This document shows, piece after piece, positions 6,652-58,414 of a DNA stretch of 64,000 bases (position 1 is its first letter; every line of letters begins with the position of its first letter). The notes beneath the pieces are model-generated. The model did not search any database. It was not told the DNA's origin and saw nothing but the letters and a program-made list of their open reading frames with translations. The position numbers and the translations under genes were made by a program. This DNA comes from a virus (lineage: Duplodnaviria > Caudoviricetes): the IMG/VR virus record IMGVR_UViG_3300028048_003124. One strand, 5' to 3'.

Positions 6652-7506
6652 GTGAACATTTTGTATAGTAAGCACGTAGTAAGTAAGAATATAACAAAGA
6701 AGGGTATTACCTTAAACAATAGTGTTATATCTTTAGAGATGGACGGATTTAACAGAAAAGATAGAGATGTTTTTATCTCAGTACATAATCTTTTATTTAA
6801 TAAGAAGCTGTCTTTTAACACGCCAGCAATAAGTATAGAGTATAGTTTAACAGATGATAAAAGTACTTCAAATGAAAAAGACTTTATCTGTGGAGATACC
6901 AAAGTAGATAAAGGAGAGTACAGAAAGCTGTCCATACTAAGAGATGATGTAACGGTAGGAAACGTACTCCAGGGTATTGGAAAATACAAGGGTTATTATA
7001 ACCTTGTATTATCTGGTGACTATGATAGTCTTGGTCTTGTGGTCAGAGATGCTAAATATGGCGTACAGATCGATAGCTTTGGTGAGGTATTAAAAGCATC
7101 GGTTTTCTCGGAAGATACAAATACTGTCGGAGAGACAGTAGGAGATACGGTGTCAAATACTGTAGGTAAGGTTGCTGAGATTATATTTTTACCGTTCGGA
7201 ACAAAAGAAGTGGGTAAGTACTCAGCTTATGCTTTATACTATAATAACGATTATGTATCTTGTAAGACGATGTATCTACTGGTAGCTTTATTTGAGTTAT
7301 TACTGGCAGATAATAAACTTTATGCAAGGAAAGATTACAACAAGTGCATAAACTATGATTTTGTCGTAGCCCATTACGGATCTGAAGAGAAGTATAATCT
7401 GATTAACTGGGTAGCAACGGTGCGATCAGAAATACTTTCCAAAAGATATGAATGTGCCAGTAACTTTAAGAAACTGCTGATGAGGTTAAAGATTATAAAT
7501 AGATAA
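6652..7506 (+). CDS. Hypothetical protein (paralogue of 7605-8402)
   Basis: 284-aa ORF; C-terminal YALYY...MYLLVALFE...INYDFVVAHYG resembles the neighbouring gene. Confidence 0.75.
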   Translation: MNILYSKHVVSKNITKKGITLNNSVISLEMDGFNRKDRDVFISVHNLLFNKKLSFNTPAISIEYSLTDDKSTSNEKDFICGDTKVDKGEYRKLSILRDDVTVGNVLQGIGKYKGYYNLVLSGDYDSLGLVVRDAKYGVQIDSFGEVLKASVFSEDTNTVGETVGDTVSNTVGKVAEIIFLPFGTKEVGKYSAYALYYNNDYVSCKTMYLLVALFELLLADNKLYARKDYNKCINYDFVVAHYGSEEKYNLINWVATVRSEILSKRYECASNFKKLLMRLKIINR

Positions 7507-16942: not shown

Positions 16943-16977
16943 CTTGCACTTCTTGTCCATATATGGTAAGATATATT
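16943..16977 (+). repeat. 35-bp exact direct repeat containing a TTGCAC-N17-TAAGAT promoter (copy 1)
   Basis: cttgcacttcttgtccatatatggtaagatatatt, identical to 21930-21964. Confidence 0.85.
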
Positions 16978-16978
16978 T

Positions 16979-17086
16979 GGAAGTAAGGCTGTAGTTGGTG
17001 ATGAGTTAAAGGAGTTAGTAGAGAGTGCAAAGGAAGGTTTGAGAAAGAAGGCTAGAAACATAAAGAATATCAAGGTGTATTGTTAA
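16979..17086 (+). pseudogene. Remnant of the 3' end of a 10803-11615-like gene
   Basis: GSKAVVGDELKELVESAKEGLRKKARNIKNIKVYC* versus GSEAVVGKELEDIIEQTKLSLRKKARNVKNVKVYD*. Confidence 0.75.
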
Positions 17087-36237: not shown

Positions 36238-36359
36238 ATTTAGATCCAAGAAGTATTTTTATTAGATACTAGAAGTGTTTAAATAGACTATTTATGGTAT
36301 AATTTAGAAAAAGTATATACATTATTAGATCTTAGAAGTGCATAGTTAGAATTTAAAAG
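36238..36359. repeat. Cluster B of phased TATTAGAnnnTAGAAG motifs
   Basis: tttagatccaagaag 36239, tattagatactagaag 36260, tattagatcttagaag 36323, gttagaatttaaaag 36345. Confidence 0.65.
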
Positions 36360-36383
36360 ATTTGCAACAGGCTATAGAGCTTG

Positions 36384-36412
36384 TTGCAAATCTTTTTAAT
36401 TTATGTTAAAAT
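36384..36412 (+). promoter_or_regulatory. Promoter TTGCAA-N17-TAAAAT embedded in an inverted repeat
   Basis: The -35 lies in the right arm of AAAAGATTTGCAACAGGCT / AGCTTGTTGCAAATCTTTT (~36355-36396), which may also terminate upstream transcription. Confidence 0.6.
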
Positions 36413-36710: not shown

Positions 36711-36739
36711 TTGCATATTCTACGGATATGTGTTAAACT
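36711..36739 (+). promoter_or_regulatory. Promoter TTGCAT-N17-TAAACT upstream of the large ncRNA and tRNA
   Basis: 17-bp spacer, extended TG, A-tract UP-like region upstream. Confidence 0.65.
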
Positions 36740-36745
36740 ATACAT

Positions 36746-37670
36746 AGTTCGAAAGGCAAAAAACTTCTATACGGCTTGTTCGTATGAGGGAGGTTGAGTA
36801 CTTTCGGACTTTGGTGGGCAGCGCCAGCCAGTCCCTTTAAGGACAGGAAGGGGTGCGTTGCCCCAAGGAGAGTAAGTCTGCGATTAGATGGTTAGAGAAG
36901 CCGTCTAATTAGGGTTAAAACGCAGATGTATGTGCGTAACGCCGCCTGAAAGAAGAAAGCCCTGTGCCGTTGGATCTTGGCTCTGGGTGTAAGAGTTCGG
37001 ACGCCGTTGAGATGCCATACCCCTCGAGGATTTTGTCGGCGGTCGGTCTATGAGACAGCCTAGTACGCTACTAGGCAGTAAGGTTCCGATCAGGGGTTAG
37101 ATGCCGAGTATAGCGCAAAATACGTCGCCGGAAGATAATGTCTGGCGGCGAGTGGCGCTCCCCTACGATGAGTGTGAAGAGCGTAGAGATGGTTGGGGAG
37201 CCAACGCCACCAGTTCTCGCAGAACTGGTATCCCTTGACGAGATTACTGTCGCAAACCCTGAAAACGGCAGGTAGGCGAGTCAGTGTATGTCCGATGAGC
37301 GGTTTATCCCGATGAGCGGTAGCAAGACTCGCCTATGGGACTTCCGAGGTTGCTGTGAGCCTGTGCATAGGATAGGCGTTTTCCGACTTTAATCGCCCCA
37401 TGCAATCACACAGTCGTTATATAAGGATGAGCCGAGGAATAGCAGGTTGCATGATTGCGTGGAGTCTATAGATAGACGTGTGAAGCGTATGAAGTGATGG
37501 ACTTTGTCCGACTTGTTCCTTATATGATGTAACTGATCCTAAGGTCGGCAGGGGAGTTTCCTCTTTAAGTTAGTGCTTAAAGATGGCTAAAGAGTTGGTA
37601 ACAACTAGAAGCGAGGATGCGTAAGAAACTCCAGTCAGGTAGTGGGTAAGCCTGACATCCCTTCCCTTTA
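36746..37670 (+). ncRNA. Large (~920 nt) highly structured non-coding RNA (GOLLD/ROOL-like size and context; family unconfirmed)
   Basis: No long ORF; markedly GC-richer than flanks; more than 10 helices with G-U pairs, a GNRA loop and possible 5'/3' end pairing; ends 5 nt before tRNA-Leu. Confidence 0.75.
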
Positions 37671-37675
37671 AGTAT

Positions 37676-37759
37676 GCGGATATGGCGGAATAGGCAGACG
37701 CGCCAGATTTAGGATCTGGTATCTCAGATGTGCAGGTTCAAGTCCTGTTATCCGCACCA
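37676..37759 (+). tRNA. tRNA-Leu (anticodon UAG), CCA encoded
   Basis: GCGGATA / TATCCGC acceptor stem; D-loop GGCAGAC; anticodon arm CCAGA-TTTAGGA-TCTGG; long variable arm; GGTTCAAGTCC T-arm; ends ACCA. Confidence 0.95.
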
Positions 37760-37855: not shown

Positions 37856-38101
37856 ATGTCAGATAAAAACTACTATGAGGTCATGATTGACCATTCAACC
37901 TTTTCAACAGCAAAATGGGCAGTTGTCAGCTACCCGAAGGATAAGTGTATCAAGAACGGTGAGCACATCAGTGACCATGAACTCGCTCAAAAACTGCTCG
38001 CGATCATTTCAAGAAAAACAGGTTTGTCAAATCTCGTCATCCATTCGATCACACTTCTCGGCGACGATGTCATCATAATTGATGACGAGCCCGTTGATTA
38101 A
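37856..38101 (+). CDS. Small hypothetical protein flanked by direct repeats
   Basis: 81 aa with SD AGGAGG. Confidence 0.7.
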   Translation: MSDKNYYEVMIDHSTFSTAKWAVVSYPKDKCIKNGEHISDHELAQKLLAIISRKTGLSNLVIHSITLLGDDVIIIDDEPVD

Positions 38102-38138: not shown

Positions 38139-38421
38139 TTATATTCTTTGTTGTTTGGTAAAGATAGCTACAATTAAATATAATTTTAGTTGTAGCTATC
38201 AGATCCACTATATGTACAGCAAGAAGATTAATACATCAACGTGTATTTTGTGTATAGCCTCAAGATGCCAGCGTTAGTTTAAAGATGAGCTAACGCTGGC
38301 GGAAGGTATAATTAGCTCCCCTAAGGGTGTTGTGAGTAAGAGTATCTTCCCAGCTCTAAGTCATCAACTTAATGTAAAAGACTAAATCGCCCTAACTCAT
38401 AACTTGTCGTTTCCCTGACGG

Positions 38422-38469
38422 ATAGCGGTCATCATTGCAGAGATGTGATGATGACCGCTATTACTTTTA
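38422..38469 (+). terminator. Intrinsic terminator closing the RNA island
   Basis: ATAGCGGTCATCATT / GATGATGACCGCTAT stem with a T-rich tail. Confidence 0.65.
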
Positions 38470-45116: not shown

Positions 45117-46034
45117 ATGTATTTTAGTAATTTATTACCCAGTGTACCTGAGGGTGAGATTGTTCGTGAGGACGGGTTGTCCTTACCGATTATCTTCAAC
45201 CCCGAGGATGCGGAGGACTTGGTAAACCACACTGTACGTCATATAGGCGACAGGATCGTGGTTACTGGTGAGACTTCGGAAGGTATCAACATCTTCTCTA
45301 CTGAAGGCAGAGAGATCGATATGGAGTCGAAGTTAACTCCGTTCCGCAAAGTACCTCATTTGACATGGTCGGAAGTTTCCGATACAGAGGAGAACCCGAT
45401 CGTGGTTGTTCTAACTAAGGGTGTTCGATTCTACAGCGATATTCCCACATATATCGAAGTGTTATACATTAACAACGATATGATGCTGATCTCTTTGGTG
45501 TACGGTGCGTGTGCTTTTGAGATGGCTGATGGAGATTACATACCGCTACAGCGTTGTAGTAGGGCAAATATAGATGCAGAAACGCACAGAGTATTTTCCA
45601 CTATGGATTGTAGAGAGCTTAAGGCTCACACGTTATGTGCCACCAAGGGTGGTTATGACAAGTCTTACAATCAGACATGCCCCCTGTTAATTACAGGAAG
45701 TGTTGATAAGGGGCTTGGCGTAAGGTGCCTGAGCAACAAAGGGTATGTATTCAATCCCGAAAGGGTTGAAAAAGTTGTTTCCGCTGAGAAGGCTGAGCTT
45801 GAGGCTAAGCGTACAGCAGTCGAGGCGAAACGGGCTGAGAATATCGAGAGGACCAAGGTGGCTCTTAGAGCTGCTGAGGAACGCAAGGCAGAGGAGTTGG
45901 CTCGTAAGGAGGCATCTAAAAAGTCAAAAGCGAGACGAACCCCTAAGGGTACTTCGGGTAGTGCGGAGAGGTCAGATCCCACGAAAAGAAATATGGGTGC
46001 AGCGAATTTCCTGTCGATACTCAGTCAAAAATAG
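45117..46034 (+). CDS. Hypothetical protein with C-terminal charged coiled coil
   Basis: 305 aa; SD AAAGGGG; structured 5' leader. Confidence 0.8.
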   Translation: MYFSNLLPSVPEGEIVREDGLSLPIIFNPEDAEDLVNHTVRHIGDRIVVTGETSEGINIFSTEGREIDMESKLTPFRKVPHLTWSEVSDTEENPIVVVLTKGVRFYSDIPTYIEVLYINNDMMLISLVYGACAFEMADGDYIPLQRCSRANIDAETHRVFSTMDCRELKAHTLCATKGGYDKSYNQTCPLLITGSVDKGLGVRCLSNKGYVFNPERVEKVVSAEKAELEAKRTAVEAKRAENIERTKVALRAAEERKAEELARKEASKKSKARRTPKGTSGSAERSDPTKRNMGAANFLSILSQK

Positions 46035-46089
46035 TAGGCAATACACAAAACACAAGGTTGTAATTAGTTTTAAGAAAGGTTGGTACTTT

Positions 46090-49000
46090 ATGAAAACTAA
46101 GTTGTTTAAGGTTGTAGCCGTGGTAATGGCGGTTATGGTTTTGGTAAGCACGATGGTCTTTACGGCTGGAGCCGCAGAGGTTATCGAAATGAGCACCGAG
46201 GGTGGCGTTCTCGCCATGGTTTTCGCTGATCGCAAAATTAAGACTCCCACAAGAGAGTATATGTATGGCGATGCTGACAGTGACTGGTGTGTAAGCATTA
46301 TGGATACAAGTCGCATCCAGAAGTTTCTCGTAGATGCTACAAAAACGATGGACACTGTAGCAGCTGATATTGACGACGATGGTGAGATCACTATCTGTGA
46401 TGCAACGGGTATTCAGAGATGGTTGGTAAACGAGAAGTTTTTCAACAATTATAAGATCGGTGACTATTTCGTATCTGATTTAGATGCCGATGGAAATGCT
46501 CTTGTTTCGGATTCCGAGTTCGTAGAGGGTGCTGAACCTGTTCACGTAGAGTCTGCGGAAGGCGATACGCTGCAGGGCGAGGGTGTAGATGTTACAGAAC
46601 CTACAGTTGCAGAGAGCCATCCTACTGTTGGGGATATCGTAGAGGATGCTGATGGTGTAGAGGTTACCTCTGACTCCGAGGCTGAACCTAAGCTTGAAAT
46701 CCTGACTATGGATGCTAAGAAGCCTTTAGCTTCTTACAATGGAACTTCGGTAACTGCTAACAATGTTAGTAACGACTCTATCCCTCGAATTACTGGTTTC
46801 GATAGCAAGGACGAGGGTGTCAAGATTTCTTATTCTAAGGTATCTGGCGTAAACCGTTATGCAGTATATTATAAGAATAGAAACGGTAACTGGGTACGCA
46901 TGGGTACTTCCACTAACGGGGTATTTATTGATACAGATGTTAGTAGCGGTAGTCGTTATCTCTACACTGTAAGAGGTCTGAGCGATGATGCTAAGAGTTT
47001 CAGAACTGACTTCTACAGAGACGGTTGGTATTACACTTATAATATGGAGTCCCCTGAGGTTACTGATATTAGCAGTGTAAAGGACGGAGTTAAGATCTAT
47101 TGGAAGGAAGTTCCTAACGCAGAGCGCTACAGAGTTTACTACAGAGGTAGTAAGGGTTGGACTTGCATGGGTTCAACTACAGGTACTAGCTTCGTTGATA
47201 CAGATGTAAGATACGGTAGCACCTACACTTATACTGTAAGATGCGTTAACTACAAAAACAATCGCTTCACAAGTAGTTTTAACGGAAGCGGTTGGAAGCA
47301 CACCTATTATCTCAACACTCCTGTTGGTTTTGATTACGATTGCTATAACGGCGGCATTAATCTTACTTGGTCTAAGGTAGACGGCGCAGCTAAGTACCGT
47401 GTATTCTACTACGGCAGAAATGGTTGGACCCGTATGGCTGATGTTACTGGCACATCTTATACTGACTGGGATGTTAGAGAGGGAGGCTCCTACACTTACG
47501 TTGTAAGATGTATCAGTGCTGATGGATCTCGCTACACCAGTGATTTTAAGTCTGGTGGTTGGAGGGCTACCCTGCTGAATACTCCGAGTGGAGTTTCCAT
47601 TAAGAGTACCGAGGACGGCAACGAGATTACTTGGAAGCCTGTTGACGGGGCTAATGCCTACAGGGTATTCTACAAAAATGGAGATTCTTGGAAGGGTATT
47701 ACGAATGTAACTGGTACTAAGTTCGTGGATACGGATGTAGAGTATGGTAAGTCTAAGACTTATACAGTAAGATGTGTAACCCCTAGCGGTATGTACTGGA
47801 GAAGTGGTTACAACACAAGCGGTTGGTCTAAGGTACACGATTATACTGCTCCCCTTACTCCTAAGCCTACAGATGTAGATCTTGCAGATATTGGTGAAAA
47901 TGAAACTGAGGCTCCGACAGTGGTAGCTACGGAGGCTCCGACAGTTGCTCCCACAGTTGCTCCTACAGTTGCGCCGACAGTTGCTCCGACTGAGGCACCT
48001 ACAGAGAAGCCGACAGAGGTAGTTGTAGATGCTCCTAAGAGTGTATCAGTAACTGAGGGTTCAAGTGGTAAAAAGGAGTATGCAGAGGTAGTTAAGTACG
48101 GTTACTGTACTAACCTTATGAATTCTGGAGCATGGATTAATGCAGGGGATACGCCAACTTCTTTCTGGAAGTCCCAGGTGGAGAACGACCAATGGGTAAG
48201 CACTCGTCTTGAGCAGCTCGGTAATGGCAAGGTAAGATTTTACTTTGATCCTGTTGCAAAGGACAAGGTTACAAGTATTATTACTGTAGTAAGATGGGGT
48301 GAAGGCGACAAAGATTTCTCCAGAGTAGATGCTACAGGTGATGCCCTCAAGTTAGGTTACTGTGACCACCAGCTTCCTGTTGTTTCTACCACAAACCCCT
48401 CTATCAAGGTATCTTGGGGCAAGTCCTCTAATGCTGATGGTTACGAAGTAAGAGCTCTTGATGTTAAGGGCAATGCAGTATCTTCCGTAGTTCGTACAGG
48501 CAGCACCTCTGCGACTGTTACCTTAAATACTGCTGATGCAGGCTCTTACAGTGTAGAGGTCAAGGCGGTAAAGGGTAACAAGTCGGCAACGGCAAAGGGT
48601 ACGTTCTCGCTCAACACGGAGTTTATCACCGAAACCGAGGGTTCGACTATCAAGGTTCCTGTTATCTTCCGCAATACCAGATTCGTATGCAACAAGTGTG
48701 GTCGTGAGGTAGGTGCCAAGGTAAAGGATCACATTAGTCCGATCGACAGTACAGAGCTTAGAGAGAAATATGCAGACAGCCTGTACACTTACAAGTACAA
48801 GCCGACCGCAGGTAGGGACAATGCTTGGGTAGCGGCTTGGGCAGGCACTCCTGATGTTACGCTGACTGCTGGATACTTTGATCTTGGAGACTATTATTAT
48901 CACCCCCTCTCTTCCAGTGATCCCGATTATACTATTAATTACGTTGCAGATGATAGTCTCGAGAGACCTGCATCTATGGCGACTAAGTTTAGTTTAGCAG

Positions 49001-49206
49001 AATTTGAGGAAAAAATCAATAATTGCGGTAACCAAACTTATATCAATCTTGGAACAGATTTTTGGTTAAATGATACAATGTCAACTTTCCACAGGGATAT
49101 TGAGGGCTGTTCCTCAGCCTATCATTCCGAGGACTGTATTTCAATCTCTGGCTTACAGGAAATCGTGATCCCTGCAACTGGCTACACGAAGGTATCAGTA
49201 GGCTAA
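46090..49206 (+). CDS. Secreted dockerin + fibronectin type III repeat surface protein with PT-rich linker
   Basis: Signal peptide MKTKLFKVVAVV...; duplicated Ca-binding dockerin GDADSDWCVSIMDTSRIQ / ADIDDDGEITICDATGIQ; four FN3-like repeats (GVKIxW..V.GA..YRVYY...W); APTV repeats. Confidence 0.85.
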   Translation: MKTKLFKVVAVVMAVMVLVSTMVFTAGAAEVIEMSTEGGVLAMVFADRKIKTPTREYMYGDADSDWCVSIMDTSRIQKFLVDATKTMDTVAADIDDDGEITICDATGIQRWLVNEKFFNNYKIGDYFVSDLDADGNALVSDSEFVEGAEPVHVESAEGDTLQGEGVDVTEPTVAESHPTVGDIVEDADGVEVTSDSEAEPKLEILTMDAKKPLASYNGTSVTANNVSNDSIPRITGFDSKDEGVKISYSKVSGVNRYAVYYKNRNGNWVRMGTSTNGVFIDTDVSSGSRYLYTVRGLSDDAKSFRTDFYRDGWYYTYNMESPEVTDISSVKDGVKIYWKEVPNAERYRVYYRGSKGWTCMGSTTGTSFVDTDVRYGSTYTYTVRCVNYKNNRFTSSFNGSGWKHTYYLNTPVGFDYDCYNGGINLTWSKVDGAAKYRVFYYGRNGWTRMADVTGTSYTDWDVREGGSYTYVVRCISADGSRYTSDFKSGGWRATLLNTPSGVSIKSTEDGNEITWKPVDGANAYRVFYKNGDSWKGITNVTGTKFVDTDVEYGKSKTYTVRCVTPSGMYWRSGYNTSGWSKVHDYTAPLTPKPTDVDLADIGENETEAPTVVATEAPTVAPTVAPTVAPTVAPTEAPTEKPTEVVVDAPKSVSVTEGSSGKKEYAEVVKYGYCTNLMNSGAWINAGDTPTSFWKSQVENDQWVSTRLEQLGNGKVRFYFDPVAKDKVTSIITVVRWGEGDKDFSRVDATGDALKLGYCDHQLPVVSTTNPSIKVSWGKSSNADGYEVRALDVKGNAVSSVVRTGSTSATVTLNTADAGSYSVEVKAVKGNKSATAKGTFSLNTEFITETEGSTIKVPVIFRNTRFVCNKCGREVGAKVKDHISPIDSTELREKYADSLYTYKYKPTAGRDNAWVAAWAGTPDVTLTAGYFDLGDYYYHPLSSSDPDYTINYVADDSLERPASMATKFSLAEFEEKINNCGNQTYINLGTDFWLNDTMSTFHRDIEGCSSAYHSEDCISISGLQEIVIPATGYTKVSVG
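47911..48020 (+). repeat. 12-bp coding tandem repeat (APTV/APTE linker)
   Basis: gctccgacagtt-type units. Confidence 0.8.
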
Positions 49207-49234
49207 CGGTAAAACTGTATAAAGCAAATATTCA

Positions 49235-49270
49235 GATGGGTAGTTCCGATATGGGGCTACCCATTTCTTT
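49235..49270 (+). terminator. Intrinsic terminator
   Basis: GATGGGTAGTTCC / GGGGCTACCCATT stem followed by TTTCTTT. Confidence 0.75.
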
Positions 49271-49696
49271 CGTTTAATTTCAGATTTATAAGAAAAGTAT
49301 TCACAGATAGGTTAGAAACTGTTACAGAGTATACGTCATACTTCGCCAAATTTTCGTTCTGCTGTATGATATTTTCAGACGTATTGCAGTATTAATTTTT
49401 GTTTAACGTGCAATAGGTGGTTAATATATGTTAATATAGTAGGTTTCTGCGTATATTCGTATATCTTCGTTATGTTATTTTATGTATGTTAAGTCAGAGC
49501 GGAGAACTACAATGTTGTTAAGTTATATAGATTTGTTAGTATGGCGTTAGTAAATATGGATAGAGTACTGATTATCTATAAGGATTGTAAATATATCTAT
49601 ATGTATATTTTTTAATAGGTTTTATGATTGCACTAATCGATATGCTAATCTTGCTATAAGATTGCGGAGTATAAATATTATTTATAGAAAGGTAGG

Positions 49697-51817
49697 ATGT
49701 TTATGTCAATTAAACAAACAAACCCTCACGAGGGTAATAAGAGGTCAGGTTTTGTAAGGTTAGTAGGTATCATACTAACTATCGCAATGCTGATAGGAAT
49801 AATCAGTTCTGTAGGAGTAATAACGGGTATTGCAGCTACGACTGAGACTTTTACCGATGAGAATGGTATCTCTTGGACTGTAACAGAGTGTTATCCAGGG
49901 TGGGCTATAAAACCGAAAAACAATTCTGGACTAAGTGGGTCTATAGATATTCCTACATCGTATAAAGGAAAAGTTATTTTAGTAATAGATTCTTCAGCTT
50001 TTTATAGCAATAAAAATATAACTTCAGTTAATATTCCCAACTCCATTGTGTCTGTTGGCTCATCTGCTTTCGAGCGTTGTTCGAATTTGCAAAGTGTTCA
50101 TTTGCCAGACAACCTGAATCATCTAGGTTCATGGTGTTTTTCAGAATGTTCACGTTTGTCAGATATTAATTTTAATGATTTTAAAGGAAATCGTATTAGC
50201 ACTGCAGTTTTTTATGGTTGTTCTTCTTTGGCAAGCATTGAGATTCCACCTTCCGTTGAAGAATTAAATTCTATATGTTTTCAACGAAGCGGAATTATAG
50301 AAATAGACATACCAGCAACTGTAAAGGTATTAGGTGGAGGGGCATTTCAAGAATGTTCAAAATTAGAAAGAGTGACTATGCATGAGGGTTTAGAGAGAGT
50401 TGAAAATGGACCTTTTACTGCGTGTCCTAAGTTGAAATCACTTGATTATCCATCTTCTGCGACTGTGGTATCTTACGCAACAGAGAGCCCTATGACAACA
50501 TGGGAGATAACAGAGAACGGAATAACATGGGTACTTTCTTTATATAATAATAAATTAGGGATTAAACCAAAAGATAAATCTCAAGTAAAAGGTGATGTAA
50601 TAATGCCTTGGATTTATCCAGCTGTTTATATAGACTATATAGAACCAAGTGCCTTTGAGGGGTGTTCAGAGTTGAGGTCTATTAGACTGCCGTCTTTTTG
50701 TAAACATATTGGAAGTAGGGCATTTGCTAACACATCTCTAGAAGAGGTGTATATACCAGATACTGTATCTCAAATAGATGATTCTGCTTTTTGTTGGAAT
50801 AGTAATTTAAAAAGTATTACTTTACCAAGCAGTTTAGAAAAAACGCCAGGTGGTATGTGTACAAATTGCAGTTCTTTAGAGACAATCGAGTTCAATGATA
50901 ATTTAAAAGAAATTGGATTTAATTCTTTTGCTTATTGTAGAAATCTTAATAATGTAGAGTTTCCATCAAGTCTAGTTAAGATAGGAGAAAATGCTTTCGA
51001 AAGCTGTTATTCATATAAGGATATTACGATACCTAATTCTGTAAAATGTGTCAATCAATATGCTTTTTCTAATATAGGAGAAATTAACAGTTTATCTGTA
51101 GATGTTGATAGTTTGTCTTATATAAATGGCTTTGCTTTTTACAAAGATACTATAGATAAGCTTGTCTTAGGCGATAATGTAAAAAATATAGACACCCCTC
51201 TTTTTTCTGGAAATAGTGATTTAGAGTATCTAACCTTAGGGAAAGATGTAGGCATTAATAATGATTTTGCATTTCTTGGTGATACAAAACTGACAATAAA
51301 GACTTATAAAGAAAATCTTAGTGTTAGAGGTTATACTGCAGATAATAGAATACCTGTTGTATTATTAAACAAGCATGTTGCAACTTTTTCAGGTGATAGT
51401 GCTGAGTCGGAGGTTATTTTAGACACAGACACCCCCAACTTAAGAGTAATTGTACCCTCGGTACTCCCCATATCCGTAGACTCTGATAACAATGTAACAG
51501 TTGCGGATAATGCTCAAATCAATAATATGTGTAGAGGTCAGATAGACATTACGTCAGCTGAGTTAAACACATCTACTTGGTCACTAGTTGATTTCAATAC
51601 AGATTTTAAAACTGTGCCCGTAGATACCAAGCAGTATGGTTTTAAACTGTACAACGACGACGCATCAGATGGTATTGATGCTAATATCTTTAGTACTATA
51701 AACGGTGGAGAGAGCTTACTGCTGTCGTATGATGGTAATGTTGCCATACAATCAGAGGCAAAAACAGCTGAAGAGATAGGCAACATTGTGTTTACCGTTG
51801 CTTGGCACAAAGGGTAA
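49697..51817 (+). CDS. Secreted BspA-type leucine-rich-repeat (LRR_5) protein with C-terminal WxL-like domain
   Basis: Signal/TM helix; xIxxxAFxxCxxLxxIxLP repeats; C-terminal ~140-aa domain shared with 62478 and 63125. Confidence 0.85.
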   Translation: MFMSIKQTNPHEGNKRSGFVRLVGIILTIAMLIGIISSVGVITGIAATTETFTDENGISWTVTECYPGWAIKPKNNSGLSGSIDIPTSYKGKVILVIDSSAFYSNKNITSVNIPNSIVSVGSSAFERCSNLQSVHLPDNLNHLGSWCFSECSRLSDINFNDFKGNRISTAVFYGCSSLASIEIPPSVEELNSICFQRSGIIEIDIPATVKVLGGGAFQECSKLERVTMHEGLERVENGPFTACPKLKSLDYPSSATVVSYATESPMTTWEITENGITWVLSLYNNKLGIKPKDKSQVKGDVIMPWIYPAVYIDYIEPSAFEGCSELRSIRLPSFCKHIGSRAFANTSLEEVYIPDTVSQIDDSAFCWNSNLKSITLPSSLEKTPGGMCTNCSSLETIEFNDNLKEIGFNSFAYCRNLNNVEFPSSLVKIGENAFESCYSYKDITIPNSVKCVNQYAFSNIGEINSLSVDVDSLSYINGFAFYKDTIDKLVLGDNVKNIDTPLFSGNSDLEYLTLGKDVGINNDFAFLGDTKLTIKTYKENLSVRGYTADNRIPVVLLNKHVATFSGDSAESEVILDTDTPNLRVIVPSVLPISVDSDNNVTVADNAQINNMCRGQIDITSAELNTSTWSLVDFNTDFKTVPVDTKQYGFKLYNDDASDGIDANIFSTINGGESLLLSYDGNVAIQSEAKTAEEIGNIVFTVAWHKG

Positions 51818-51947
51818 TATAATAAGGTATCTGTATATTTATAAAATAGGTTAGTTATCTTTTATATAAGTAGGTTGTTAACTACCCCTTAAATACTTCT
51901 CACAGTGGGTATTTAATTATAAATATCTTTATAAGGAGAAAGCTTTT

Positions 51948-52466
51948 ATGAAACGATTAGTAAGCATTTTATTAGCAATTGTTGTAATTGCAGGGTGTAT
52001 ATCTTTGGTAGCTTGCGGTAAGGCTAATAAAGATGTTGAAACGCAGGCTCCAACAGAGAAGGAGACTATTGCTTTAGAGCCCAGTACAGAGGTAGTAGTT
52101 TCCCAGACTGAAGCAAAGTCACTTGCTGGTAAGAAGTTCAAAGATGTAGAGGAGTATTTAGCTGATCCAACTGTTAAAGAGCAGCTTGATAAGACAGTTT
52201 CGTCCCTTTCATCTTCTAACATTGACGCAGAGGTTTATGCTGAAGACTCTGATACGTTGGTGTTTAAGTACACATATAAAAACTCATATACTGAAGAACA
52301 GTTAGCTAAGGTAAAAGATGCAGTATCTTCTTCAATGGGTACTTTAGACTCATTGATGAAGATGTCGAAAGACGAGTTAATCACATATACTGATGTCAAG
52401 GATCCTAAAGTCAAGGTTGAATTTTACACAAACGATGGTAAGCTTATCTTAGACCAGACTTGGTAA
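51948..52466 (+). CDS. Lipoprotein (DUF4854-like)
   Basis: Lipobox SLVAC; C-terminal VKVEFYTNDGKLI. Confidence 0.75.
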   Translation: MKRLVSILLAIVVIAGCISLVACGKANKDVETQAPTEKETIALEPSTEVVVSQTEAKSLAGKKFKDVEEYLADPTVKEQLDKTVSSLSSSNIDAEVYAEDSDTLVFKYTYKNSYTEEQLAKVKDAVSSSMGTLDSLMKMSKDELITYTDVKDPKVKVEFYTNDGKLILDQTW

Positions 52467-52674
52467 AATCCTTGGTAATAAGTTTATTTTACTGTGGTAT
52501 TACATATTACAAGTTTATGAATGAGTGTTGGTTTATTCTATAATTAAACGCTTTAAAATACTTGTAGATAGCTTTATCCAACAAACCAATTTTTCAATAA
52601 TTTTGATGAAATTTTTGTAGTTGGCTTGTAGATTAAGTTGTTGTAGTTGAAAAGCAAAAAAACGGGGTATCTGT

Positions 52675-52905
52675 ATGGGCAAGAGTACTAATAAGAAGAA
52701 CAAATCTCAAAAGGCTAAAAACAATTGGGTAGATATGACAAAATCTGGCTCTAGGAAGCCTACTTGTGGTAAGTCTTTGGAGGTGCGCTTATATAACGGG
52801 GTTATATTGCATGCTAAATACTGGAAAACAGTAGGGTATGTAATGACAAGTCCAGAAATAAGGCGCATATCTTGGTGGGATGTTTCTGCTTGGAGGTATT
52901 GTTAA
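52675..52905 (+). CDS. Small basic hypothetical protein
   Basis: 76 aa; SD GGGG. Confidence 0.55.
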   Translation: MGKSTNKKNKSQKAKNNWVDMTKSGSRKPTCGKSLEVRLYNGVILHAKYWKTVGYVMTSPEIRRISWWDVSAWRYC

Positions 52906-53034
52906 TAGGTGAAGAATTTTAAAAGAGTTATTAAAACCAGTAAGTATTTCAAAGGTTTAATTTGTAATATATTGGTTTCTATACTACTAACTACAATATT
53001 TGTATTATTGTTTATACTGATATCAAGGTAATAA

Positions 53035-53078
53035 AAGAGTGGTGTTTTAGTTGCAATAGTTAAAACACCATTCTTTTA
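53035..53078 (+). terminator. Intrinsic terminator
   Basis: AAGAGTGGTGTTTTAGTT / AGTTAAAACACCATTCTT stem followed by TT. Confidence 0.6.
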
Positions 53079-53287
53079 ATATGTGTATTTTTGTTAAATT
53101 TATACAATATATACTTAATTGTAATCTATTTTTGTGACTTGTATGCAAATATTTATGATTGATATAAATACTCGTAGGTTTAGCTCTTTACGGAGTTAAT
53201 CATTATAGGCTGTTAAGTGTGTTTGTGGTTTGGTGGAGTACTATTAAACATTCTTAACTACATTCTTTGTTAGAAAGGAAGTAGATT

Positions 53288-56200
53288 ATGACAAAGATTT
53301 TTAATCGGTCAGTAGCCATAGTCTTATCTCTGCTTGTGTTAATTAGTCTGTTTGCGGTAGCCATTCCCGTACTGGCAGGCTCTGTTAATGATCCTGTGGA
53401 TGATTGCATTGACTACTCTAGTTCTGGAAGAGTTTCTATTACTGCTAATCAGGATACTATATGGTTTGGTCAGCATGGTGATGGTTCTTGGATGTGGTTT
53501 CTTAACGGAAATCCAGGTGCTTGTATGTCGCCTGATAAAAAATCTCGTATAACAACTGGAACTTTTACAAAGTATTATCTAAAGAATGATTCAAATTTAG
53601 CAAAGGCTTTCTTCTATTTACTACCACCTCTTGATGCTGATGGCGATGAGATTGGATATGATGCCGCTAAGGCTAAGTCAACTTCTGGTTTTTATCTACC
53701 TGTGGAAGATAGACAGATAATGAACAACGCCCATTTCACTCATTATAACTTAGAGACTGCTAGTACATGGTGGGACGCTTATGAAGGTGGTGGCAGACCT
53801 TCTTATTGGAGAATTCTTGGTGCGGCTTCTGAGAGAATCGGTGGCGATGGTGAAGACTCTCACGAGTTGTATGCTCTTGCTCACTTCCTGCTTGGTAGAA
53901 TAGCATCTGGAGAGACTTTGGGAAAGACCTATACGGAGACAGATTATGTACTAGAGGACCTTATTGAGGTTGTTGATATGCTACCAGATGTGCCAGAGTA
54001 CGCAAAGGTATTCTACATTGATGGAAACCAGGGCACTGGCGAATCAGGGTGGTACCAGAGCTTTATGAGTGCTGAGCCGAGATATTATTTTACGGTACAG
54101 AAATCATCTGCAATACCAGAAGTATCAAAAGGCAATAAGGCGTACAGCACAAAGGGTATTCGTTATTCTGTATCAACAAGCAAATCAGATTTTGACCCTG
54201 ATGGTAACAATTACATTGGTTACATTGAGCTAGATAAGAATGGCTTTGGTCATTCAATTGAGGGTAGTAGACCTACTTTAAGTAAGAACTTATCACCTGG
54301 TACTTATTACTTAAAAGAGTCTGTAATACCAGAAGATTGTAATTATGAGATGAGCGATACTGTTTATACTGTGAAGCTAAACAGTAGTCATACTTATAAT
54401 CAACCGTTAGAGATTTCAGTTACTGATGAACCCAAGCTCTGTTATTTTGATATTCAGAAGGAATCTGCAAATCCTGAAATCTCAGATGCAGATAAAGATA
54501 AGTATTCAATGGAAGGTATTGAGTACTATGTTTCTAAATCAAACACAGACTTTGATCCAAACGGTACTAACTATATTGGTATGATCAAGCTAGATAAGAA
54601 TGGCTATGGTCATTCCAAAAAGGGTAGTCGTACTTTGAACGAGTTGGGCGCAGGAACATATTATGTACAAGAAGGTTATATCCCGCCGTCAAGAGCTCTA
54701 TATTGGGAGAGGAGCACAGAAGTATATACAATAACTGTAAATACCTCTAATACGGTAAACCAGCCGTTACATCTTAATGTAACTGAGGTACCAAAGGTAC
54801 GTTCCGCAAGCCTACAGATTATCAAGAAGTCTGACAACGAGACATTTACAACGGATAATGCTTGCTATTCGTTAAAGGGTGCTGAGTTTAAGGTTTACGA
54901 GGTCAAGACTGATGATTTTGGTAAAGAAATACCAAATTATGAAAAGCAGGTAGGAACAACTTATGTAACCAATGATAGTGGTTCGATAGAGATTCCTAGT
55001 GGTGTTCTTGAGGTAGGTAAAAAGTACGCTATTGAGGAGAAAAAAGCTCCTAAGGGTTTTGATTTGTACACGGATAAAAACGGTAATCATTATATTATCA
55101 GTGACACTCTTACGACAGAAGGTTGCACTGTAACTTTCGAAGAGCCATGCAAGGGAGACCCTGCTACTGTTAAGGTAATTAAGAAGGGTTCAAATAATAA
55201 AGAAATTCCAGGTGTTATCTTTACTGTAACCCACTTCTCTGATCCTACAATTACTACAAAAGAGCAGGCTGAAGCAGCTAAGAACACAATTACTCGTTCT
55301 TGGGATTTCGTAACCAAAGGTAACGGATCTTTTTCTTATTCAGAAGAATACTTATACGAAGGGTATACAAGTAAATACCCCGATTACATTCAGGGTAATG
55401 ATTCAGAGCATGGTTTGTACTATATGACACAAATCGTTGACGGGGTAGAGAAAACGTCAACAGCCTTTCCTCTCGGTACAGTAATGATTCAGGAAAAGTG
55501 GGCACCTGAACGTTATGATCTTGACTTTGAACCTAAGTTCATTAACATCACTGAAGATTATGTTGAAGGTGAACCAGTACCATTTGAGGTAACTGTTGTA
55601 GACCCAGAAAACAAAAAGACCGTTGTTGAAGCCAGAAAGATTTGGAGCGACGACGGTGATCGTGAGGGTGTAAGACCGAATAAACTTACTGTTACTCTGT
55701 ATAGAGATGGTGAGATTTATGAGGATGTCCCAGGTGGCGCAGTCCAGGAGTTGAACGATGGAAACAATTGGACGTACTCTTGGGGAGAACTTTACGAAGA
55801 AGAAAATATCTACGATGAGAATAAGGTATATCTCCGCAAGGAGACTCACAAATACGAAGTAGTTGAGGAAGAGGTAGAAGGCTACTATCTAACTAGAACT
55901 GCGAAGCGCCAGATAGAAGGCGGTCATAGGTGGGTATTCTACAACAAGCACGATATTGCCTACAAGCCTTTAGTAATAAACAAGGTTTGGGATAACAACA
56001 ATGATGCTTCTGGCTTACAGCCTGATGAGGTAAAGGTCAAGGTATTCCGTATTAGCGATTCTGGTGAAGAGCTTTTAACTAAGGATGATAAGCATAATGC
56101 AGTTGGCGACAACGGTATTATCACTCTATCCAAGAATACTGAAACACCTTATCAGTTTGTCATCAAAGATCTTTACAAGTACTACGGTGGCGGTAAGGAG

Positions 56201-56833
56201 TATTCTTACAGAGTAGAAGAGGTTGACGTACCTGACTACTTTGATGTTAATATCTCTTACGGAACTGTTCCTGTGAAGGTCGCTGATGGCGTAGGTGGTA
56301 TGCCTGATACTTATGCTGATGCTGTAAAGACTACCATTAAAAACACAGAGAAAACTGGTGCAGCTACCTTGCTAAAGGTTAATTCCTCAGATGAGCCTCT
56401 ACCGCAGGTTGGCTTCAAACTATACAGAGTTGAAGGTAATACTGCAAAGTCGGTATCTATTGTAAAGAACGACACAATTGGTAAGTTTGAGTTTACTGGT
56501 TTTGGTGCGTATGATAGTGCTGAGGAAGTATTCACTGGCGATGACGGTAAGGTTTCATTCGATAAACTTCCCTTTGGCGATTACTTCTTACTAGAAACGA
56601 CTACAGCAAACGGGTACATTCCTTTTGAAGATAGAATTGAGTTCTCTATCTCCCCAGATGATCCCGATTTCGAGAACGTTTCTGTTGGTATAGTAAACTC
56701 TAAGTCTATTCTACCAGAGACTGGTGGCATGGGCAACTACATTTTCTATGGTATCGGTGCATTAGCTCTTATTGGAGTTATTGTGTTAGTAATTGTATAT
56801 ATCAAGAAAAAGAATTTCAGAAAGGAGAAATAA
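53288..56833 (+). CDS. LPxTG-anchored SpaA/CnaB-domain adhesin (pilus tip/ancillary pilin)
   Basis: Signal peptide; prealbumin-like/CnaB repeats (GTYYLKE, KIWSDDGDREGVRP, KVWDNNNDASGLQP); LPETG + TM + basic tail. Confidence 0.88.
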   Translation: MTKIFNRSVAIVLSLLVLISLFAVAIPVLAGSVNDPVDDCIDYSSSGRVSITANQDTIWFGQHGDGSWMWFLNGNPGACMSPDKKSRITTGTFTKYYLKNDSNLAKAFFYLLPPLDADGDEIGYDAAKAKSTSGFYLPVEDRQIMNNAHFTHYNLETASTWWDAYEGGGRPSYWRILGAASERIGGDGEDSHELYALAHFLLGRIASGETLGKTYTETDYVLEDLIEVVDMLPDVPEYAKVFYIDGNQGTGESGWYQSFMSAEPRYYFTVQKSSAIPEVSKGNKAYSTKGIRYSVSTSKSDFDPDGNNYIGYIELDKNGFGHSIEGSRPTLSKNLSPGTYYLKESVIPEDCNYEMSDTVYTVKLNSSHTYNQPLEISVTDEPKLCYFDIQKESANPEISDADKDKYSMEGIEYYVSKSNTDFDPNGTNYIGMIKLDKNGYGHSKKGSRTLNELGAGTYYVQEGYIPPSRALYWERSTEVYTITVNTSNTVNQPLHLNVTEVPKVRSASLQIIKKSDNETFTTDNACYSLKGAEFKVYEVKTDDFGKEIPNYEKQVGTTYVTNDSGSIEIPSGVLEVGKKYAIEEKKAPKGFDLYTDKNGNHYIISDTLTTEGCTVTFEEPCKGDPATVKVIKKGSNNKEIPGVIFTVTHFSDPTITTKEQAEAAKNTITRSWDFVTKGNGSFSYSEEYLYEGYTSKYPDYIQGNDSEHGLYYMTQIVDGVEKTSTAFPLGTVMIQEKWAPERYDLDFEPKFINITEDYVEGEPVPFEVTVVDPENKKTVVEARKIWSDDGDREGVRPNKLTVTLYRDGEIYEDVPGGAVQELNDGNNWTYSWGELYEEENIYDENKVYLRKETHKYEVVEEEVEGYYLTRTAKRQIEGGHRWVFYNKHDIAYKPLVINKVWDNNNDASGLQPDEVKVKVFRISDSGEELLTKDDKHNAVGDNGIITLSKNTETPYQFVIKDLYKYYGGGKEYSYRVEEVDVPDYFDVNISYGTVPVKVADGVGGMPDTYADAVKTTIKNTEKTGAATLLKVNSSDEPLPQVGFKLYRVEGNTAKSVSIVKNDTIGKFEFTGFGAYDSAEEVFTGDDGKVSFDKLPFGDYFLLETTTANGYIPFEDRIEFSISPDDPDFENVSVGIVNSKSILPETGGMGNYIFYGIGALALIGVIVLVIVYIKKKNFRKEK

Positions 56834-56839
56834 GTCTTT

Positions 56840-58414
56840 ATGAAGAAGATTTTTGTTTCGCTGATGGCTATTCTTATGGTAGCCATGATGATGTTTTCCG
56901 CTGTAAGTGTCAGCGCAGGTACTGAGACCGCTAAGCTTGACACCAACACCAAGGTGGGTTTTGTAGGCAACTGTGACAAAGAGGGGTACACTTTCAATGT
57001 GTACAAGATTGCTGATCTGAACAAGTTTAATTATGGTATCAAGTTTGATAGCAAAATTAACGATGCTGATGTAAAGGCAGCTATTGCAGCAGGTTCTGAC
57101 TATGACAAGTGGCACAATGGTGCAACTAATACTGCTGAAGTCCTGACTAACAATCAGGCTACTCAGGATCTTCTTGATGCCCTTGATGCTCTCCCCGAGA
57201 GCTCGCTCGGCGGTATTGTAGATACTTTTACTTCTACTGATACTGTTAAGTCTAAGGAGTTTAAGAACCTTACTCAGGGTATCTACTATGTTCGTGCAGT
57301 AAACTTCCCTGCTGGCGTTAAGGCTGTCACCAACTCCGTATTTGCTCTGCCTTACTACACTGAGGAGACTGGTTGGGTGTACACCATTCCTGCTATTCCG
57401 CTTGCAGCTAAGGTACTTGATGAAGTTCCCGAGAACCACAAGATTATCACTAATTCTACTCGCAACAGCGAAGAGTATTCCGATAACTCCCTCGGTGATG
57501 TCATCAATTATCAGGTAACTACCGATGTTGTTGGTACTGTAAATCCTGTTGAGTCTCACAACTTCAAGCTCAACAGCTATGTACTTACCGATATCATGTC
57601 TAAGGGTCTTACCTTTGATAAGAACTCTGTAGGCATTAAGATTACCAAGGAAGACGGTACTGTCGTAGAGACTCTTAAGAATTCCGACTTTACTGTTGAG
57701 GCTACTGGAGCTGCAGGTCAGGCTACTAACATCAAGATTTCTCTGACCAAGGATTATCTCCAGAAGAACAGCTTCTACGGTGGAGATAAGGTAGTTTATA
57801 CCTATACTGGTACTCTGAATGAGTATGCCGTTCTTGGCAAAGAGGGTAACCCCAACGAAGATGTTAAGCTCGAGTACTCCAATAAGAATGACGTAAAGGG
57901 CGAAGTTCCAGGTAATACCGTATGGGTATACACTTGGGGTATTGAGCTTGAGAAGTATGATGAGACAGGTACCAACGTACTTGGTGGCGCAGACTTCTCT
58001 CTGTATGCGACTAAGGCTGATGCCCAGAACAATACCAACGTTCTCGGCACTGGTACTTCTACCGCAGCAGGTAAGGTAACCTTTAGAAATGCAGAAGGCA
58101 AGGAAGTTAAGCTCGAAAGTGGTACTTACTACGCAATCGAGACTAAGGCTCCCACTGGTTACAACCGTTATACTGATCCGATCGAGATCAAGATTGACGT
58201 AACTTATGACAGCCAGTTCAACGCAACCGCTAAGACTTGGGTAAAGAATGCTCCTGAGATCGGTAAGGCTGTTGTTGGAGTAAACAACTCTAAGTCTATT
58301 CTTCCCCAGACTGGTGGTATGGGTGATATGCCCATGTACATCATCGGTGTTGTTGCACTGATGTTTGCGGGAGTTGCGATTCTGTTCTATAAGAAGAGAA
58401 AGGCGCAGAACTAA
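56840..58414 (+). CDS. LPxTG-anchored major (backbone) pilin, SpaH/EbpC type
   Basis: Signal peptide; isopeptide D2-domain pattern (GDVINYQV...TDIMSKGLTF); E-box YYAIETKAPTGY; LPQTG + TM + basic tail. Confidence 0.88.
   Translation: MKKIFVSLMAILMVAMMMFSAVSVSAGTETAKLDTNTKVGFVGNCDKEGYTFNVYKIADLNKFNYGIKFDSKINDADVKAAIAAGSDYDKWHNGATNTAEVLTNNQATQDLLDALDALPESSLGGIVDTFTSTDTVKSKEFKNLTQGIYYVRAVNFPAGVKAVTNSVFALPYYTEETGWVYTIPAIPLAAKVLDEVPENHKIITNSTRNSEEYSDNSLGDVINYQVTTDVVGTVNPVESHNFKLNSYVLTDIMSKGLTFDKNSVGIKITKEDGTVVETLKNSDFTVEATGAAGQATNIKISLTKDYLQKNSFYGGDKVVYTYTGTLNEYAVLGKEGNPNEDVKLEYSNKNDVKGEVPGNTVWVYTWGIELEKYDETGTNVLGGADFSLYATKADAQNNTNVLGTGTSTAAGKVTFRNAEGKEVKLESGTYYAIETKAPTGYNRYTDPIEIKIDVTYDSQFNATAKTWVKNAPEIGKAVVGVNNSKSILPQTGGMGDMPMYIIGVVALMFAGVAILFYKKRKAQN

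Follow-up and report, generated by a model that had tools for sequence, protein, structure and literature searches.

A large structured non-coding RNA adjoining tRNA-Leu in a rumen-type mobile element occurs as two alleles on one conserved core

The DNA directly upstream of a tRNA-Leu gene in the window (the whole stretch of 64,000 nucleotides analysed here) carries a + strand non-coding RNA that is conserved, has covarying helices, occurs as two alleles built on one core and matches no Rfam family. We consider it probable that this locus is an uncatalogued large structured RNA gene, whose product would be made as a precursor together with tRNA-Leu, released by RNase P, composed of a core with exchangeable domains, and active in trans. 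The preliminary description of the window, made from its letters, had proposed a large structured non-coding RNA at this place and had left it undecided between a divergent GOLLD or ROOL and a new class. The presence of the RNA in relatives and the covariation of its helices support the proposal, and on the second point the tests favour a new class. To our knowledge, only a handful of bacterial or mobile-element RNAs exceed 500 nt and adopt complex conserved folds, namely rRNAs, group II introns, GOLLD, ROOL and OLE. Such large complex RNAs are each structurally remarkable, GOLLD and ROOL being RNA-only cages. GOLLD reportedly goes back to Weinberg et al. in 2009. The coordinates of the features discussed below are collected in Table 1.

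The element that harbours the RNA had been taken for a phage. This assignment was not supported, since among the 20 larger ORFs screened against PHROGs no phage structural gene was found beyond a partial tail-domain match. The genes recognized in the window encode SpaA/Cna-B Gram-positive pilins, a dockerin protein, a BspA-type LRR protein, DEAD/ResIII helicases, a UvrD helicase and a DnaJ-domain protein, and most of the other screened ORFs had no family match. The host is a large mobile element, and we do not assume it to be a phage. The surface-protein genes form a cluster at 45745-58414, which encodes a protein of 1153 aa that combines dockerin, PT repeat and GH85_C-like parts, a BspA-type LRR protein of 706 aa and two proteins (1181 and 524 aa) that resemble SpaA/Cna-B Gram-positive pilins.

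Relatives of the locus were reached via the upstream 134-aa protein and fell into three clusters in ENA/Logan metagenome assemblies, whose sample names suggest cattle-rumen studies. Contigs of ~223.8 kb were found in several independent assemblies, so that the element is probably a complete replicon of ~224 kb. In group A (L016-L020) the flanks are 96-97% identical to the window, and a different RNA of ~635 nt, which shares a single 29-nt BLAST match with the window RNA, lies between the same promoter and the same tRNA. In group B (L004-L011) the flanks are 70-80% identical, yet the window's ~930-nt RNA is present at 98.4-99.7% identity and is more conserved than the promoter, the tRNA (Table 1) and the upstream gene (80%). 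In group C (L012-L015; 44% protein identity) and in L034, a lineage found via the 200-aa downstream protein, the locus has no copy of the RNA or of the tRNA, and the lack of the RNA at the locus in these more distant relatives implies that it is dispensable for this type of element. In L034, ARAGORN calls a tRNA with a two-base 'aa' anticodon at 16964-17036, adjoining a tRNA-Leu(TAA).

Alignment of the long allele (window, L004, L008) with the short one (L016, L017, L018) revealed invariant blocks of 6-25 nt that occur in the same order in both and are separated by diverged sequence. These blocks are AAAGAAGAA, GTGTAAG, GAGATGC, TTTGTCGGCGGT, GGGGTTAGATGCCGAGTATAGCGCA, CGCTCCCC, AGAGCG, CGCCACC, CTGTCG, CGGCAGGTAGG and CCTATGGGACT; the longest one, GGGGTTAGATGCCGAGTATAGCGCA, comprises a conserved bulge or pseudoknot strand, the 3' strand of P5 and a junction. 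Outside the common core, the 5' domain of the long allele includes a hairpin TCTGCG..CGCAGA (36878-36926), the 3' domain is confined to the long allele, and the core of the short allele reaches to within 7 nt of the tRNA. The last few nucleotides before the tRNA are again common to both alleles. No internal duplication was found between the core and the peripheral domains.

Table 1. Features of the RNA locus in window coordinates, with the identity of the larger segments to the L004 lineage and the base-pair swaps seen in the core helices.
Feature	Position	Strand	Identity, window vs L004	Remarks
Intrinsic terminator, 19-bp stem then T run	36355-36396	+		Ends the upstream DnaJ / 134-aa operon
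Upstream DNA			74%	
Putative sigma-A promoter	36711-36739	+	88%	TTGCAT (36711-16), 17-nt spacer, extended -10 TGtTAAACT (36731-39)
5' peripheral domain, long allele	36746-36929	+	98.4%	First 14 nt shared with short allele, rest allele-specific
Core common to both alleles, ~410 nt	36930-37345	+	98.6%	Corresponds to L016 7173-7581
P2	36930-35/37014-18	+		
P3	36938-50/36996-37008	+		Inner part: 3 swaps
P4 hairpin	36958-86	+		
PK1, candidate pseudoknot	37019-24/37092-97	+		One U-A to A-U swap
P5	37036-40/37103-07	+		
P6	37041-46/37086-91	+		2 swaps
25-nt string GGGGTTAGATGCCGAGTATAGCGCA	37093-37117	+		Longest invariant block, identical in both alleles
Ha	37123-32/37141-50	+		3 swaps
Hb2	37181-84/37204-07	+		1 swap
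Hc	37209-17/37221-29	+		2 swaps
P7	37247-52/37266-71	+		
P8	37272-82/37326-36	+		3 swaps
3' peripheral domain, 330 nt, long allele only	37346-37675	+	99.7%	
tRNA-Leu, anticodon TAG (UAG)	37676-37759	+	89%	ARAGORN and Rfam; directly 3' of the RNA
81-aa ORF with ribosome-binding site	37856-38101	+		Possibly on the same transcript
Strong terminator-like hairpin, 19-bp stem	38421-38462	+		Likely end of transcription unit, after the 81-aa ORF
Downstream DNA			65%	

As already described, the RNA is GC-rich on an AT-rich background, with a GC content of 0.52-0.55 over 36750-37350, of 0.33-0.40 in the flanks and of 0.375 as the window mean, and no other GC-rich island (stretch above 50% GC) in the window is as large as 36746-37675. 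The absence of a long ORF was also verified. No ORF starting inside the RNA exceeds 45 aa, no open frame spans the RNA (at most 53-80 codons in the standard code), and reassignment of any single stop codon (TGA, TAG or TAA) leaves no frame open throughout, the longest covering 121 of 310 codons. Frame-preserving conservation was not seen between the long and the short allele, whose sequences are offset by many indels of lengths not divisible by three. The whole long allele folds on the + strand with a minimum free energy of -336.8 kcal/mol, as compared with -302.2 +/- 7.7 kcal/mol for shuffles (z -4.5), and on the - strand with only -268.8 kcal/mol, so that the + strand is better by 68 kcal/mol. 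No exceptional stability was seen for the short allele (z -1.3) or for the 3' domain by itself (z -1.4).

Since the terminator at 36355-36396 closes the upstream operon, the RNA needs a promoter of its own. The promoter that had been proposed is supported in part: it reads as a plausible extended -10 promoter and is kept in all three lineages (97% identity in the L016 lineage and 88% in the L004 lineage, in which the DNA further upstream falls to 74%), but it was absent from the list produced by a consensus scan, because only 3 of the 6 bases of its -35 element agree with the consensus. The transcript is predicted to start near 36746. No terminator was found between the RNA and tRNA-Leu. The 81-aa ORF further downstream is missing in the L004 lineage and is thus not tied to the RNA. 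It is 85% identical to a gene at 6001-6243 of L001, a 251-kb IMG/VR element (IMGVR_UViG_3300021431_004083) with direct terminal repeats, in which the gene stands in a different context with no tRNA; a copy of the RNA was not found in this related element. The 81-aa ORF thus looks like a small mobile gene common to giant rumen elements.

The arrangement of RNA and tRNA could be explained by a cis-acting leader, in other words by a long structured 5' extension that controls tRNA-Leu and/or the 81-aa gene through processing, stability or transcription. The RNA is indeed contiguous with the tRNA, with no intervening terminator, and the sequences shared by both alleles outside the core are the first 14 nt and the last few nucleotides before the tRNA. 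However, a 410-nt core with at least 12 helices and invariant strings of 25 nt far exceeds the needs of known tRNA leaders, the L004 lineage has kept the RNA without the 81-aa gene, and tRNA-Leu genes occur without the RNA in distant relatives, which makes a leader function improbable in our opinion. We favour a separate RNA gene, for which transcription would proceed on the + strand from the promoter at 36711-36739 and run on into tRNA-Leu(UAG), and an RNase P cut at the 5' end of the tRNA (37675/37676) would then free the RNA with a defined 3' end near 37675. Release of tRNA-punctuated non-coding RNAs by RNase P is known from MALAT1/mascRNA in eukaryotes and from tRNA-linked transcripts in bacteria. 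The window RNA likewise runs directly up to a canonical tRNA, from whose 5' end it is separated by no terminator, and RNase P would be expected to make the 3' end of the RNA. The functional unit would be the ~410-nt core, which would bear an exchangeable periphery consisting of a 5' domain in both alleles and the 330-nt 3' domain in the window allele.

Comparison of flank and RNA identities leads to the conclusion that the window has an L016-like backbone and an L004-like RNA. The break points of the swap lie at ~36759 and 37673, which corresponds to the predicted transcript start and to the 5' end of the tRNA. The RNA is exchanged as a discrete module, and this exchange marks the boundaries of the RNA independently. 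It also suggests that the choice of allele matters to the element. That the window and L004 are so nearly identical here may be due to recent transfer and not to selection. The tRNA-Leu(UAG) copies of the three lineages (window 37676-37759, L016 7589-7672, L004 7947-8031) have 6-9 differing positions, and in the acceptor, D and anticodon stems both partners of a pair have changed together (for example CCAGA/TCTGG versus CAAGA/TCTTG). The tRNA therefore evolves faster than the adjoining RNA cassette.

A precise cassette swap between otherwise near-identical genomes would also fit an RNA that serves replication, incompatibility or immunity in a plasmid-like element (of a primer or regulator type, for instance) and whose alleles would set specificity. 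A UvrD helicase gene located 3.7 kb downstream and surface genes that are plasmid- or conjugation-like, and not clear phage genes, fit such a role. Nevertheless, no replication initiator was identified adjoining the RNA and known replication RNAs are not linked to tRNAs, and we regard this explanation as unlikely.

The core contains at least 12 helices common to both alleles and one candidate pseudoknot, all of them seen in two lineages. RNAalifold on a plain MAFFT alignment gave 74 pairs, 18 of them with compensatory double changes. As MAFFT misaligns the middle of the core, the alignment was rebuilt from anchors and the helices were defined in both alleles. The resulting hand-built consensus, which was scored on the same sequences from which it was derived, comprises 65 pairs. 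Of these, 47 do not vary, 14 have changed on both sides with pairing retained, 2 have a change on one side that still allows pairing, and 2 are broken. In controls with the 3' partner slid by 1-3 nt, 0-1 double changes were obtained and 1-6 pairs were kept among 27-40 changed ones. The covariation of the helices represents essentially one deep comparison of two diverged lineages plus minor variants. On a tool-made alignment (A3), 100% of the cells of P7/P8 were paired, versus 26-50% in slid controls. The 3' domain, being nearly identical in the window and L004, holds no variation that is informative for structure.

Minor variants within each lineage likewise keep their pairs. In the long-allele lineage, 37061/37073 changes from U-A to C-G, 36947 from U-G to C-G, 37129 from C-G to U-G and 37130 from G-U to A-U, and in the short-allele lineage 7252 changes from U-G to U-A and 7346 from G-U to A-U (positions of the L016 lineage). 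Several G-U pairs are conserved, in P6, Ha, P7 and P8, and they assign the RNA to the + strand. Several of the helices that had been drawn by eye in the preliminary description were supported. Compensatory changes were seen in relatives for GGTCGG/CCGATC, CGTCGCCGGA/TCTGGCGGCG, ACCAGTTCT/AGAACTGGT and TAGGCGAGTC/GACTCGCCTA, and GCCTAGTA/TACTAGGC has changed from U-A to C-G in L004. The helix ACCCCT/AGGGGT, with its U-A to A-U change, crosses P5 and is for that reason a candidate pseudoknot; it takes in the invariant GGGGU and lies around the invariant GGGGUUAGAU element. Two proposed pairings are not supported: the short allele offers no equivalent of GTGGCG..CTCCCC/GGGGAG..CGCCAC, and in L004 and L008 an uncompensated change of G36850 to T removes one internal pair from the end-to-end pairing GGAAGGGG/TCCCTTCC.

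The comparison with known families that had been suggested was carried out with Infernal cmscan against all 4227 families of Rfam 15. At gathering thresholds, tRNA was the only match in the window, L016, L004 and L012. At E<=10 with permissive filters on inputs of 1.6 kb and 0.66 kb, both alleles gave, besides tRNA, only chance-level matches of 11-19 bits (Plastid-ycf2 on the antisense strand of the tRNA, BsrF, IS009 and c-di-GMP-II). At this threshold neither allele matched GOLLD, ROOL, OLE, HEARO or raiA, nor RNase P, tmRNA, group I or II introns or rRNAs, and ARAGORN found no tmRNA either. The positive control for this search was ROOL only (RF03087, gathering score 99.1 bits), a genuine copy of which, present in 1 of 81 sampled Lachnospiraceae genomes, was recovered with 358.4 bits over model positions 1-574 (L028, 1501-2067, - strand). 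None of the invariant blocks of the window RNA occurs in this genuine ROOL, the sole 11-nt match falling outside it.

ROOL RNAs have a mean length of 581 nt, are multi-junction and non-coding, were first found in cow-rumen metagenomes and occur in mobile elements, often adjoining tRNAs with which they are possibly co-transcribed (Weinberg et al. 2017, PMC5737381). The window RNA resembles them in being large, non-coding, tRNA-adjacent and located in a mobile element from rumen-type samples; unlike ROOL, which has few highly conserved nucleotides, it contains invariant blocks of 6-25 nt, and it is so far found in one element lineage only. GOLLD RNAs are often longer than 800 nt, are associated with tRNAs in phages and prophages, and consist of a conserved part and a variable 5' part (bioRxiv 10.1101/2024.12.08.627333 / PMC12286853). 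The window RNA is likewise large and tRNA-linked, with a conserved and a variable part, but the conserved region of GOLLD is at the 3' end, whereas the core of the window allele sits in the middle of the RNA. The habit of both families is shared, as tRNA-Leu begins directly after the RNA within a ~224-kb element of several metagenome assemblies. A highly divergent member of GOLLD or ROOL would therefore agree with the occurrence beside a tRNA in a mobile element of rumen-type samples, which were the first source of ROOL (PMC5737381), with the similar size range of 635-930 nt and with the GOLLD-like division into a conserved part and a variable 5' part (bioRxiv 10.1101/2024.12.08.627333). It is nonetheless quite unlikely in view of the failure of both families to match either allele at E<=10, as opposed to the 358 bits of a genuine ROOL, which moreover is devoid of the invariant blocks.

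Under the interpretation as a new RNA gene, the product would be a stable folded RNA that acts in trans, possibly as a scaffold, as a self-assembling particle or within an RNA-protein complex. The scaffold or self-assembly role is proposed solely by analogy with the tRNA-linked GOLLD and ROOL, which are unrelated RNAs. Going one step further along this analogy, we tentatively raise the rather speculative possibility of a third class of giant tRNA-linked ornate RNAs, the core of which might fold into a defined particle, perhaps a self-assembling one, with exchangeable domains that tune binding or enclosure. If true, this would be the third unrelated RNA of the same habit, which would imply that the niche selects repeatedly for large ornate tRNA-fused RNAs, and it would offer a new comparison for working out the role of GOLLD and ROOL. 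The two natural alleles, with one core and different periphery, represent a ready-made domain-swap experiment and define a minimal construct of ~400 nt for structure work.

The distribution of the RNA was followed in several collections. BLASTN of the RNA against the INPHARED phages yielded matches to the tRNA part only, and no match was obtained in the PLSDB plasmids. Exact or degenerate patterns were derived from the invariant bulge/junction, from the P7/P8 blocks and from the P3/P2 blocks. Three patterns had no match in IMG/VR, where the P3/P2 pattern gave three chance matches, all at one terminator/RBS site. The JGI metagenomes gave 0 matches at first and 5 chance matches in a further scan, with no other core blocks near them and no R2 match; the one that was checked sits at the start of a 199-aa ORF. 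Among the 185,579 species genomes of GTDB there were 4 matches, none of them near a tRNA, and the sole one in Firmicutes looks like coding sequence. The covariance models R1 (P5/P6 and bulge) and R2 (P7/P8) gave matches of 87-119 bits, all of them at the known loci. R2 was found in none of 151 Lachnospiraceae genomes, and an R1 match of 28 bits in L030, at the beginning of a 199-aa ORF, came from the pre-selection by pattern. Judged by these searches, the RNA family is known from one element lineage in ENA/Logan assemblies only, and distant members could have been missed, because the searches need near-exact blocks or sample few genomes.

This narrow distribution, together with a short allele and a 3' domain that fold no better than shuffles, might be taken as a sign of a non-functional sequence (a decayed gene, an intron remnant or a captured GC-rich fragment), but such an origin is very hard to reconcile with the 14-18 double changes that preserve pairing and with the blocks that have stayed invariant although the rest of the two alleles is saturated with change, with the lack of an open frame under any code and of any intron, rRNA or other Rfam match, and with a conserved promoter.

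Small repeats were observed within the long allele. In the 5' domain of L004 and L008, the hairpin region GTCC-TTTAAGGAC is present as a tandem duplication of 27 nt (L004 ~7075-7101, an insertion after window position 36829). The P8 insert carried by the long allele (window 37294-37323) contains two copies of CCGATGAGCGGT, 18 nt apart, which would give two look-alike mini-hairpins; at the equivalent place the short allele has two unrelated hairpins.
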